Source of the DNA: Pseudomonadota bacterium
Lineage (GTDB): Bacteria; Pseudomonadota; Alphaproteobacteria; UBA8366
Length of the DNA stretch: 64,000 bases
Direction of reading: 5' to 3'
Assembly (NCBI GenBank): GCA_036339585.1
Contig: JAYZAS010000004.1
Coordinates: 318,773 to 382,772, forward strand
A program made the position numbers and the translations under genes. Of this stretch, positions 19,660 to 35,742 are shown in pieces. The notes beneath the pieces are model-generated. The model had not been told where the DNA came from. It searched no databases and was given only the letters and a program-made list of their open reading frames with translations. The first letter of the stretch is position 1; the number at the start of each line of letters is the position of its first letter.

Positions 19660-20880
19660 TTAGTCATTAAGCCTGTGTTCTTGTGCCCTTGGTACAAGCT
19701 GTGTCTTACCAACGTGCCTAATACCTTTATCCTCATGCTTGATGCATTTTGAGTGCAGATCAAGAAACAATTTGCCTGCATTTGTTTCTCCCCAAAACCA
19801 ATCGGCTGCTGACCGGCTATTTCGAACATTAGATTTTGCCGTAGCAGCTTCAAGATACCACATCTTTACGTCCTCACAAGTAAAGCGAAAAACCTCGCCC
19901 AAAGCCATATCTTCCCTAGGATTTTTCGGAGTTCCTTGAAGAAATCCAGCCAAAAACTCTACGGCCTCTTTGATGTTCAATCCACTAAGCCCGAAGGTTG
20001 TCCTTCCTCGCTCATCAAGCGCGAGATTGTACCATGGTTTCATCAAATCAATTTCTGTAAAAATCTCTTTTAACACTTCATTGTTGCTTTCGACTGCTGG
20101 CTTCGGGAAACCGACCGGGCAAAAAATTCCCGATTCTTCAAAAGAATGACCCCCGGGTGGATCTTCATCGAAATCTTCTAAAATAACCGGTCCATCCGTG
20201 CGCTCTAGAAGAGACAACAGTGAAGAGAGTACCTTTGTCTGGAATTCAGGCTCATTTGGAGCTCCAAACGGCCGACCAAGCTCAAATGGCACCCAAAGTG
20301 CCCTTGGTGGCCGAATGCGCTCTGTATTTTCGCGTACCAAGCTAATACCGGCCGTCGCCAGTCCTTTTTCCTCAATGTAATGCCCAACCGCGCCGACCGC
20401 ACGGGTGCAATTTGGTCAAACCGGCACCAATAAAACTGCGTTCACATTGTCTTCACGAAGCAAACCCGCAAGCTCATGACAAGTGGGCTTAATCTCATGC
20501 GGAAGCCACCCTGCCCCCATCAAAGAATAGTGAAACTTGCCAATAGATCCAATTTTTCCCTCGTCCTCAAGTTCGCGCAATCTATCAAGTGGGAAAACAA
20601 CGTTAATATCTTGCTGAAATCCGGTACGGTCGTAATTCACGGAAGTGTGGGTCATTACGATATCGTTTAGATCTATGTCTCCAGGGATTACCCTGTACCC
20701 CGTATCCTGTAGGAGAAAGTTTTTGTCCTTTCGCCTGTGAAGCCCGGCCGTTGTAACAATCGCCACTCTTCGGTCCTCGAGAGCGGGGCCCGAAACAAAT
20801 GGCTCGTTATCGAAAACGGGACACTCCTTTTCACGCAAATGCTTGGCGTCAAGTGCGGGAATGTCTTTCAATCGAACCAT
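19660..20880 (-). CDS. GrdB/PrdB-family selenoprotein B-like protein, copy A (in-frame UGA = Sec at codon 155)
   Basis: Track ORFs 20416..20931 and 19660..20340 share one frame. They are separated only by TGA (20416-20418) plus 25 open sense codons. Read-through gives ...NAVLLVPV-U-PNCTRAVGAVGHYIEEKGLATAGISLVRENTERIRPPRALWVPFELGRPFGAP... I set the start at ATG 20880 (MVRLKDIP..., matching the paralog's MVRLTDLS...), 4 nt after the paralog's TAA. RVAIVTTAG, SVNYDR and FPLDRLRELE resemble the GRDB family. Confidence 0.75.
20383..20418 (-). other. in-frame UGA (20416-20418) with candidate SECIS-like hairpin 11-33 nt downstream
   Basis: mRNA reads UGA-CCAAAUUGCA-CCCGUGCG-GUCGG-CGCGGUUGGG. The pairs are CCC/GGG, G-U, a 2-nt bulge, then UGCG/CGCG, closing on a G/U-containing 5-nt apical loop. 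Folded by hand only. Confidence 0.45.
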
Positions 20881-20884
20881 TAAG

Positions 20885-22105
20885 TTAACCTTTAGATCGA
20901 TCAATAAGGTGCTGAAATCCTCTTGGGACAATTCCCTTTGTCCCCATTATTGTCAAGCGCTTTTGGTTCGACAACGCCATCAAAGATGCAAGCTGAATCA
21001 AGGTTGCGCCAGCTGCTGTCTCACACCAAAACCATTCAGATATTTCTTCGCTAATCGTTCCCGGTTGCAGGCTAGCAGCTTCGTAGTACCAAACCTTCAA
21101 ATCGTCGGCTGCAAATTTAAGCTTTTGCGCCAATAACTTATCTTTTCCTGTATCAGTAATATCGTGATCAGCAATAAACCCGTCTATGAAAGTAGCGATC
21201 TCGCCTATATCTAGGCCGCTAACCCCAAATACTGTTCGGCCTGTCTTTGCGTTATTCGAAATTCGGCATGGCGCAAGCAAAGATATTTCTTTCGCTAATG
21301 CTTTGCTAGGATATTTTATCCACCTTGCGCGCGGCGGAAGGTTCACCGGACACGACCAGCGATCAGTTTTCTCGTTTACGGCCCTATAACCCTGATCCGA
21401 AAAATTCTCTAAAACCGGCACATCCGAGCGCACCAAGAGGCCTAGCCCGGCCTCGAGGACACGGCGTTGCAAGCTTGGTGAATCCGGTGCCCCCATTGGC
21501 CTTCCCAACGGAAACGGAACCCAAAGAGCACGAGGGGGATTTATTTTTTCTGAATGTTCACGCACAAGACTAATTTGGACTGTTGAAATTCCTTTATCTT
21601 CAATATACCTTGCTAATCCGCCAACGGCGCGCGTACAATTCGGTCATACTGGCGTTAGAAAGACGGCATTAACCCGATCTTCTTTTAGCATACCTATCAT
21701 ATTCTCGGCGCTCTTCTTCAGTGCTCCCGGCTCTGTTGCGCCCATAAAAGAGTAATGTGATGAGGCAATCGATCCTATTGTTTTCGCCTCTTCTAATTCT
21801 CGGAGTCGATCAATTGGAAAAACAGTATTCAGGTCTTGTACAAAGGCGCTGCGGTCATAGTTAACCGATGCATGGCTCATTATAATGTCACCGGCATCTG
21901 CAGAGCTCGGAATAACGCGGTAGTCACTAGATCCAGCTGAAAAAGTTTCATCATCTTTCATTGAGATGCCAGCCGAAGTGATGAGCGCAACCCGAGCAGT
22001 CCCTAAATCTGGAGCAACAGAAAGCGGGGATCCATCAAACTGCGGACATGGAAGCCGCAGTAAATTCTCTGCTTCACCTTTCGATAGATCAGTCAATCGC
22101 ACCAT
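20885..22105 (-). CDS. GrdB/PrdB-family selenoprotein B-like protein, copy B (in-frame UGA = Sec at codon 154)
   Basis: Track ORFs 21644..22105 and 20885..21565 share one frame. They are separated only by TGA (21644-21646) plus 26 open sense codons. Read-through gives ...NAVFLTPV-U-PNCTRAVGGLARYIEDKGISTVQISLVREHSEKINPPRALWVPFPLGRPMGAP... Total length is 1221 nt, identical to copy A. Confidence 0.75.
21610..21646 (-). other. in-frame UGA (21644-21646) with weaker candidate SECIS-like structure
   Basis: mRNA reads UGA-CCGAAUUGUACGCG-CGCC-GUU-GGCG-GAUUAGCAA. There is an inner 4-bp GC stem with a GUU loop and a possible outer UUGU/GCAA helix. This is clearly less convincing than copy A. Confidence 0.3.
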
Positions 22106-35184: not shown

Positions 35185-35292
35185 ATATACCTGCATTGAG
35201 GTTTAGTTGACACATTGCTGTCGTGCATTAAATTACTGGAAACTTGTTATACTTAATATTCAATCAAAAACTTATACGATTGGGCGTTATTC

Positions 35293-35742
35293 ATGGCTGC
35301 AAATATCAAGTCACCATCAGGATTGCCAGATGGTTTTGCTAAGCGAGTAGTAAGCATACCAGGGCAAATAGCCACCTCGGAAACCGGCAAAAAATTAGTT
35401 GTGGGGAAAGATATTTGCCTATCTGGTGAAATAACTGCCTGCGATACGCTCGTTGTTGAAGGGCAGGTAGAAGCATCCTTAAAGGATAGCAGAGTATTTG
35501 AAGTTGCAGAATGCGGTGATTTTAAAGGCAAAGTAGAAATTGAGATCGCAGAAATCAGAGGAAAATTTGAGGGTGAATTAGTAGCAAATTCGCGTCTGAT
35601 TATCCGCCGCTCGGGATTTGCAACTGGCAATATCCGGTATCGTGAATTGGAAATCGAACAAGGCGGTAAAATTTCTGGCTCAGTGGAATTTCTGCCTGAG
35701 ACCGGGGAAGACTCGCCCAAGGAAAGTACGGAGGATACATAG
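35293..35742 (+). CDS. bactofilin (polymer-forming cytoskeletal protein)
   Basis: 149 aa with a beta-helix repeat pattern (LVVGKDICLSGEITACDTLVVEGQVEASL ... GKVEIEIAEIRGKFEGELVANSRLIIRRSGFATGNIRYRELEIEQGGKISG) and disordered termini. Confidence 0.8.
   Translation: MAANIKSPSGLPDGFAKRVVSIPGQIATSETGKKLVVGKDICLSGEITACDTLVVEGQVEASLKDSRVFEVAECGDFKGKVEIEIAEIRGKFEGELVANSRLIIRRSGFATGNIRYRELEIEQGGKISGSVEFLPETGEDSPKESTEDT

Follow-up and report, generated by a model that had tools for sequence, protein, structure and literature searches.

Are four open reading frames (ORFs) on the minus strand of an alphaproteobacterial contig really two genes, each read through an in-frame UGA as selenocysteine (Sec), and what kind of enzyme would such genes encode? 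The question is posed by a stretch of 64,000 nucleotides (nt), hereafter the window, from a Pseudomonadota bacterium of the UBA8366 lineage (assembly GCA_036339585.1, contig JAYZAS010000004.1, positions 318,773 to 382,772), in which a reading made from the sequence alone had picked out two tandem genes of the GrdB/PrdB family as a probable selenoprotein pair. We hold with high confidence that the window contains two adjacent, co-oriented paralogous genes, here termed B and A, each coding for a selenoprotein of 406 residues that belongs to the PrdB/GrdB superfamily and in which one UGA is read as Sec. Of the checks proposed with the sequence-only reading, all those carried out favored it. The claim of two adjacent Sec-containing paralogs is supported by the occupancy of the UGA column in homologs, by the ratio of nonsynonymous to synonymous substitution rates (dN/dS) around it, by a conserved hairpin just past it, and by the association of the family with sel genes in related genomes.

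Two tandem genes with a single in-frame UGA each

On the minus strand, the ORFs at 21644..22105 and 20885..21565 share one frame, as do those at 20416..20931 and 19660..20340, and the sole interruption within each pair is one TGA (21646..21644 in gene B and 20418..20416 in gene A). Between this TGA and the start picked by the ORF caller lie 26 sense codons in gene B (GTG 21565) and 25 in gene A (TTG 20340). Both the frames and these spacers had been described in the sequence-only reading, and the coordinates bear them out; so do they its proposal that gene A begins at ATG 20880, with which each gene measures 1221 nt including the stop and 4 nt (20884..20881) separate the two. A recount likewise returned the 16 identical residues out of 25 that it had reported between the spacer peptides following the UGA, the complete proteins being 44% identical. 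The same 4-nt spacing is seen in the orthologs L081-L084, and the distance from TGA to TGA is roughly equal in L001-L003. Genes B and A are likely co-translated, and we infer translational coupling between them.

A six-frame scan of the window for TGA codons with no fewer than 60 stop-free codons on one side and 40 on the other returned only these two junctions as open at length in both directions (176/251 and 165/252 codons); the remaining candidates were short antisense shadows. Elsewhere in the window TGA terminates 23 other long ORFs, including dnaK, murJ, glnD and trpS; hence, the standard genetic code applies without reassignment, in line with the earlier statement that TGA is a normal stop here. 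TGA is also the commonest stop codon of the window (25 of 59 long ORFs). This usage speaks against a read-through of the two UGAs without Sec, i.e., with Trp, Cys or Gly inserted by a suppressor or near-cognate tRNA or through a local reassignment. One could adduce for such decoding that the 64-kb window has no tRNA genes of any kind (nor any Rfam family at gathering score); nevertheless, in light of this and the evidence on the UGA column, the hairpin and the sel genes given below, we consider it highly improbable.

Purifying selection across the UGA

Orthologs with ~85% identity on Tara Oceans and JGI marine metagenome contigs match the window genes in length and in TGA position, and lie in the same synteny as in the window, mutS-glnD-murJ-B-A-trpS-nfu. 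In comparisons with these, the post-UGA spacer codons have a dN/dS of 0.09-0.15 (gene B) and 0-0.03 (gene A), values as low as, or below, those of the remaining gene (gene B: 0.13-0.14 upstream of the UGA and about 0.22-0.24 downstream; gene A: 0.04-0.06 upstream and 0.06-0.09 downstream). The best conserved part of the protein, including the invariant C157 and R159, is encoded by the codons that separate the UGA from the presumed restart, and the frame is open for 252 codons past the UGA in both genes and in every ortholog.

These observations bear directly on the alternative that the UGAs are true stops, which would leave a 153-154-residue GRDB-domain protein followed by a ~226-residue protein restarted at GTG or TTG, or that both genes are decaying pseudogenes. 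Public gene callers do annotate the orthologs in this manner, as ORFs of 153+226 and 154+210/242 residues, a splitting by automated pipelines that the sequence-only reading had foreseen. Moreover, a profile of the post-UGA half retrieves 2146 representatives at 50% clustering (1162 at E<=1e-10), and 148 of its best 150 matches are fragments that begin at residue 1, called from the first start past the UGA; most are nameless in their sources and the named ones are mostly labeled "hypothetical protein". To this might be added that the Sec machinery of this genome is presumed to lie outside the 64-kb window, within which none of it is found. However, the spacer dN/dS of 0-0.15 weighs decisively against both termination with reinitiation and pseudogene decay, and the long open frame past the UGA, the uniform choice of TGA in relatives and the continuous, Cys-bearing homologs (see below) are equally at odds with true stops. 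We accordingly give this alternative only a very slight chance; rather, with 148 of 150 best matches starting at residue 1, the split annotation of read-through genes is systematic.

The UGA column is a Sec/Cys column

In all 16 full-length homologs recovered by database search (369-708 aa), the column corresponding to the UGA is occupied by Cys, and in none by Trp or Gly; the surrounding block P-V-[C/U]-x-x-C-T-R is invariant in them. A further scan, covering one genome per species, returned at least 597 relatives; of the loci kept from it, 80 of 80 have TGA at the column, never TAA or TAG. This inspection of orthologs for Cys or UGA, suggested with the sequence-only reading, thus places the UGA on the family Sec/Cys column. 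The hosts among the relatives span Alphaproteobacteria (Rhodospirillaceae, SAR116/Puniceispirillum, Reyranella and Hyphomicrobiaceae), Desulfobacterota, Beta- and Gammaproteobacteria, Dehalococcoidia and metagenome-assembled genomes labeled Acidobacteriota, and are mostly aerobic marine and soil Alphaproteobacteria.

The same column is the Sec site of PrdB itself. The RefSeq-annotated prdB on the megaplasmid of Peptoclostridium acidaminophilum carries its in-frame TGA at codon 151 (VFTAG-U-GTCHRS), and in pairwise alignment U154 and U155 of the window proteins map exactly onto this U151. When the window proteins are aligned with named PrdB proteins, the UGA falls on the TAG-[C]-GTCHR column of the latter, and the clostridial motif VVMTAG-U-GTCHRS given in the sequence-only reading proves essentially right. 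That some pipelines render the clostridial PrdB column as W might be cited in favor of decoding without Sec; however, the W in two metagenomic PrdBs is a TGA translated under another code (code 4), and wherever the codon at the column is sense in the homologs of the window proteins it specifies Cys, the Sec analog. Among database PrdBs, P0121, P0123 and P0185 display a W or R at the Sec column, where TGA was evidently translated under another code or otherwise mis-assigned; such entries constitute a further route by which selenoproteins come to be mis-recorded.

The Sec and Cys forms differ slightly in the residues that follow: the Cys forms (P0011-P0023) read C-P-N-C-T-R-(A/S/T)-T-(C/S) and the Sec forms U-P-N-C-T-R-A-V-G, and most Cys forms carry a third Cys, eight residues past the first.

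A SECIS-like hairpin follows the UGA

An ungapped alignment of 91 sites displays a core hairpin of 17 nt, starting 11 nt past the UGA, together with a 3-bp outer stem. In its 3-nt apical loop G28 is invariant and U29 is conserved in at least 90% of the sites. This G-U is 18 nt downstream of the UGA, within the spacing of 16-37 nt published for the bacterial Sec insertion sequence (SECIS) (PMC10778597). Paired cells amount to 81.6%, as against at most 60.7% with slid partners; covariation is evident at pair 22:36 (CG 73, UA 8, GC 2, AU 1) and also at pair 21:37; and RNAalifold recovers the same core hairpin. As the element overlaps conserved codons, we resampled synonymous codons while keeping the protein sequence and each gene's own codon usage constant: at 94 of 94 sites more pairs form than expected (8.2 versus 5.9 of 10), and at 93 of 94 the fold is stabler than expected.

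In gene A the hairpin has a GC content of 0.80 versus 0.47 for the gene (99.7th percentile) and a minimum free energy (MFE) of -12.0 versus an expected -6.2 kcal/mol (synonymous resampling, 1%). In gene B, 8 of 10 consensus pairs form as against 5.3 expected (synonymous resampling, 2%), and one further pair is restored in its orthologs L081 and L084. In a small sample of three Cys-form genes, the G-U loop is absent and fewer pairs form. These results support a SECIS-like element with predicted binding of SelB, and its conservation at the right spacing is not what one would expect of a UGA decoded without Sec. The Val-Gly codons of the Sec forms provide the G-U loop and the 3' arm of the hairpin.

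Genomic linkage to the Sec machinery

In 8 of the 60 loci scanned, no more than 6 kb separate the family gene from a gene for tRNA-Sec, and SelB, SelA and SelD are encoded near the family gene in 10, 6 and 6 loci, respectively. Thus, in a Candidatus Puniceispirillum locus (L015:4894-11027), a TauD-family dioxygenase, the PrdB-like gene, tRNA-Sec, selA and selB occur together. Such clustering is as expected if the family protein is a principal client of the Sec machinery, and the presence of relatives of the gene beside selC, selA, selB and selD again disfavors a decoding without Sec. We infer that the Sec machinery is also present in the genome under study. In the window itself, a tblastn search with SelA, SelB, SelD and TauD from related loci gave only a generic GTPase match, and the candidates for selA, selB and selD suggested by size proved to be miaB, a periplasmic binding protein, dnaK, hrcA and a polysaccharide deacetylase.

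The family gene is found directly beside Sec machinery also in L042, L040, L070, L050, L011, L025, L063 and L058. In L042, selD is immediately upstream of it. In L025, an 813-aa ORF (L025:3473-5914) combining pyridine-nucleotide disulfide oxidoreductase and SelD (AIRS) domains is located just upstream; since a predicted tRNA-Sec (L025:3602-3696) overlaps its 5' end, the true start of this ORF is probably later.

Family membership and domain architecture

What kind of GRDB-type proteins are these? In the Pfam scan proposed as a check on the sequence-only reading, both exceed the gathering cut-off of GRDB (PF07355), with 48.2 and 43.6 bits versus 22, the match ending at residues 151/152, that is, 1-3 residues before the UGA. 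The best NCBIfam model is TIGR04483 (PrdB), with 109.1 and 107 bits (E 2e-31), which aligns across the UGA from residues 31-33 to 224-227; the GrdB models, which had been named for the same purpose, also align across it, and the GrdB-type models are covered only at positions ~200-417 of ~430 aa, including the Sec site. Measured against their cut-offs, however, these matches are remote: neither protein reaches the 300 bits of the TIGR04483 equivalog, and the scores for GrdB, GrdF and GrdH (TIGR01917, NF040794 and NF040795) are 62/53 bits versus 602, 80/61 versus 800 and 70/63 versus 775. The broad subfamily model TIGR01918 is narrowly missed (65.2/56.4 bits versus a cut-off of 65.45).

The architecture is distinct as well. 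PrdB ends near window residue 230-255 and the window proteins run on for ~175 residues, into a C-terminal domain for which we found no match in Pfam or the PDB. The idea that this domain is a fused remnant of PrdA was rejected, as it shows no profile similarity to a PrdA-like ORF. In an AlphaFold2 model of the Cys homolog P0012 (mean predicted local distance difference test score 89.6, predicted template modeling score 0.88), the [U/C]xxC motif is situated in an alpha/beta domain, between the strand 149-153 and the N-terminus of the helix 157-172; a lower-confidence loop, into which the alignment places an invariant Cys-Pro, then leads to an all-helical domain. A PDB sequence search gave no match at E<=1, and Foldseek comparison of the P0012 model with the PDB gave none at E<=1e-3, with only weak Rossmann-like matches and no functional lead from the fold.

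The partner genes of the canonical systems are likewise missing: PrdA-, PrdC-, GrdA- and GrdE-like genes are found neither in the window nor as recurring neighbors in the 80 loci. In P. acidaminophilum, a PrdA-like ORF lies directly upstream of the canonical prdB. This ORF (L090:4714-6477) is in frame with prdB and continuous to its TGA, and is absent from the gene table of the plasmid; it may represent a fused prdA-prdB or an annotation gap.

Could these proteins nonetheless be genuine subunits of D-proline reductase (PrdB) or of glycine/betaine reductase (GrdB/GrdH), engaged in Stickland-type reductions? TIGR04483 as the best NCBIfam model, the UxxC motif at the same column and a set of invariant residues common to the family and PrdB (H78, D84, D91, N93, R100, C157, R159 and R192) would be consistent with this, and the selenoproteome literature files the marine family as "proline reductase PrdB". 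Yet the scores of 107-109 bits versus 300 for PrdB, and 53-80 versus 602-800 for GrdB, GrdF and GrdH, the extra C-terminal domain, the missing N-terminal half of GrdB, the lack of PrdA, GrdA, GrdE and PrdC genes, and the mostly aerobic marine and soil alphaproteobacterial hosts all argue to the contrary, and we deem it very unlikely. The earlier assignment to the GrdB/PrdB family therefore holds insofar as the proteins are Pfam GRDB homologs with Sec at the family column; by score, architecture and partner subunits they are not PrdB or GrdB equivalogs.

The features of the locus are collected in Table 1.

Table 1. Features of the B/A locus, numbered from the first nucleotide of the window
Feature	Coordinates	Strand	Remarks
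Gene B, PrdB-like selenoprotein gene, 406 codons	22105..20885	minus	ATG 22105 (MVRL...); TAA 20887..20885; in-frame UGA is codon 154
Gene A, paralog, 406 codons	20880..19660	minus	ATG 20880 (MVRL...); TAA 19662..19660; in-frame UGA is codon 155
Gene B residues 1-230, alpha/beta domain	21416..22105	minus	homolog of complete PrdB and of GrdB's C-terminal half
Gene B residues 231-406, family-specific, mostly helical C-terminal domain	20888..21415	minus	invariant Cys-Pro (C252-P253)
Predicted Sec154 of gene B	21644..21646	minus	motif TPV-U-PNC-TRAVG; column Cys/TGA in homologs; aligns to U151 of annotated PrdB
Predicted Sec155 of gene A	20416..20418	minus	motif VPV-U-PNC-TRAVG
B/A junction	20881..20893	minus	Shine-Dalgarno-like AAAGG (20893..20889) within the end of gene B, TAA, 4-nt CTTA, then ATG of gene A
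Gene A hairpin	20383..20409 (core 20404..20388)	minus	6-bp stem CCGUGC/GCGCGG; 5-nt loop GGUCG
Gene B hairpin, the weaker of the two	21610..21638	minus	apical stem CGCC/GGCG (21629..21626 with 21622..21619); loop GUU (21625..21623); outer stem UUGU/GCAA

The paralogous pair and its gene neighborhoods

In a neighbor-joining tree, gene B groups with the first copies and gene A with the second copies of the pairs in L001-L005, L081 and L084. B and A thus stem from an old duplication that has been kept in order, which suggests a joint function: the two products probably work together, possibly as a heteromer. Tandem family genes are also present in L007, L019, L021, L060 and L069, in which the clades paired in the same tree differ from those of B and A, and tandem pairing hence seems to have originated, or been rearranged, on more than one occasion.

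Across the 80 loci there is no universally conserved neighbor, only lineage-specific partners (TetR, TauD, sel genes and murJ/trpS). The one recurrent hint that gene context provides concerns TauD. In a deep clade of Cys forms, a TauD-family dioxygenase gene always comes after the family gene, with overlapping or near-overlapping stop and start, or is fused to it. The Cys-form fusions with TauD/TfdA are 708 aa long; loci and proteins of this kind are L085:8001-10127, L086:7775-9901, L087:8001-10147, L088:2940-5086 and L089:8001-10136, and P0010 and P0014. Genes for glutathione S-transferases and sulfatases are also seen around the loci of the Cys-form clade. TauD genes flank Sec forms in L009, L015, L066 and L068, and none is near the gene pair in the lineage of the window.

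In the window, the direct neighbors of the pair are murJ and trpS. The window as a whole is rich in housekeeping genes: nusA, metK, lnt, phoH, miaB, trpS, murJ, glnD, mutS, a malic enzyme gene, dnaK/dnaJ/grpE/hrcA, rph, a hemN-like gene, gshB and hisF. Elsewhere in it, two ORFs of ~150 aa on opposite strands (35253..35720, minus; 35293..35742, plus) occupy almost the same stretch.

Proposed chemistry and its weighing

We propose that decoding follows the standard bacterial SelB/SECIS route: the hairpin would recruit SelB with Sec-tRNA(Sec) to the ribosome, such that translation would continue past the UGA. In the folded protein, a helix of a Rossmann-like domain would carry the U-x-x-C pair at its N-terminus. 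The selenolate of U154/155 would then attack a carbon of a small carboxylate-type substrate, leading to reductive cleavage of a carbon-heteroatom bond; C157 would resolve the Se adduct to a selenenylsulfide, and cellular thiols would re-reduce it. The mechanism of PrdB and GrdB is reportedly established, through work by Kabisch and colleagues in 1999 and subsequent reviews, and the chemistry of the window proteins is proposed by analogy with it. The residues H78, D84, D91, N93, R100, R159 and R192 would fit a related small carboxylate substrate. Given the missing pyruvoyl partner and the new C-terminal domain, we argue for a different substrate, which is probably not D-proline or glycine.

Taken as one joint picture, these proteins might be self-contained two-domain selenoenzymes of aerobic marine and soil bacteria, which would use a PrdB-type U-x-x-C motif to split reductively, with thiols as the driving reductant, a C-N or C-S bond of some abundant small metabolite. 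In some lineages a TauD-family Fe/2-oxoglutarate dioxygenase, fused to the Cys forms or translationally coupled with them, would be the partner; in the present lineage the two ancient paralogs would act as an A/B heteromer; and the invariant Cys-Pro, in the flexible loop at the start of the C-terminal domain, would perhaps stand in for the missing subunit. We advance this picture as a whole only tentatively, and regard it as more apt to fail than to hold in all its parts.

Several points count against our interpretation. With respect to the hairpin, that of gene B is weak, with a 4-bp apical stem and an MFE of -5.6 versus -5.3 kcal/mol in synonymous controls; single-sequence folds of both hairpins (71 nt from 4 nt before the UGA) are not significant versus dinucleotide shuffles, and the case for a SECIS consequently rests on the comparative tests. 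The sequences entering the covariation analysis are mutually related, and the count of 0 of 500 column shuffles reaching the covariation score is thus not a probability. No Rfam SECIS family was detected, either in the window at gathering thresholds or at the locus at E<=10. None of selA, selB, selC and selD is in the 64-kb window. With respect to function, the chemistry is proposed from homology, and no relative with a solved structure turned up in the PDB searches; and the locus has no partner subunit that could activate a substrate.

A known marine family and its annotation

The selenoprotein family is already known. In the Sargasso Sea survey, "proline reductase PrdB" was the third most abundant selenoprotein family, with 42 Sec sequences (Zhang et al. 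2005, PMC1088965); in the Global Ocean Sampling (GOS) survey, PrdB was among the top families, with 235 Sec versus 110 Cys sequences (Zhang & Gladyshev 2008, PMC2398784); and later reviews place PrdB with the selenoproteins most widely distributed in bacteria. As the close relatives of the window genes stem from marine metagenomes (Tara Oceans and JGI) and SAR116 genomes, it is very likely, on a match by description rather than by sequence set, that the window genes belong to this marine family. The pair thus adds members to it, and their Sec status will not surprise the specialist. Our literature search yielded no study on the function of such "PrdB-like" or "GrdB-like" proteins, and no paper splitting a two-domain, stand-alone subfamily from true PrdB.

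Several consequences follow for how this family is read. Thousands of database entries are halves of a family protein, and joining them restores a selenoenzyme of 45 kDa. The family is often found beside the Sec machinery and may be a main reason for which some bacteria retain it. It bears the name of a clostridial fermentation enzyme, the tests of which it fails in score, architecture and gene context. Finally, its real substrate is a question for marine selenium cycling and for carbon/sulfur cycling.

Comparison with known systems

The window proteins resemble the "PrdB" family of the marine surveys in the pfam07355 domain, the UxxC Sec motif, the abundance in the surface ocean and the excess of Sec over Cys forms. 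Those papers give counts and a name, whereas the 406-aa two-domain architecture, the tandem pairs and the TauD and sel neighborhoods emerge from the present analysis.

The hairpins can be compared with the SECIS of the fdhF type in Escherichia coli. As in the latter, an in-ORF hairpin lies just past the UGA with G-U in an apical loop 18 nt downstream, and the 17-nt core starting 11 nt after the UGA presumably matches the minimal fdhF element. In contrast to it, the window hairpins are of unrelated sequence, with no evident bulged U and no Rfam match.

With GrdB, GrdF and GrdH the window proteins share the Pfam GRDB domain and an alignment that extends across the Sec site. Unlike GrdB, they are devoid of its N-terminal ~200 residues; their motif is UxxC (U-P-N-C-T-R-A) without a third Cys, as opposed to the UxxCxxC of GrdB; and their genes have no grdA, grdE, grdC or grdD context.

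The closest comparison is with PrdB (TIGR04483) of Acetoanaerobium sticklandii, Clostridioides difficile and P. acidaminophilum. PrdB is a single-domain protein of ~240 aa, whereas the window proteins, at 406 aa, have the additional ~175-aa C-terminal domain; they score a third of the equivalog cut-off, and no PrdA pyruvoyl proprotein or PrdC is encoded nearby. The PV-U-PNC-TRA of the window proteins stands in place of the AG-U-GTC-HRS of PrdB, and the hosts of their family are not amino-acid fermenters. Set against these differences, the two are homologous over the full length of PrdB at 26-36% identity, and have in common several invariant polar residues and a U-x-x-C motif with Sec, encoded by an in-frame UGA, at the identical column.

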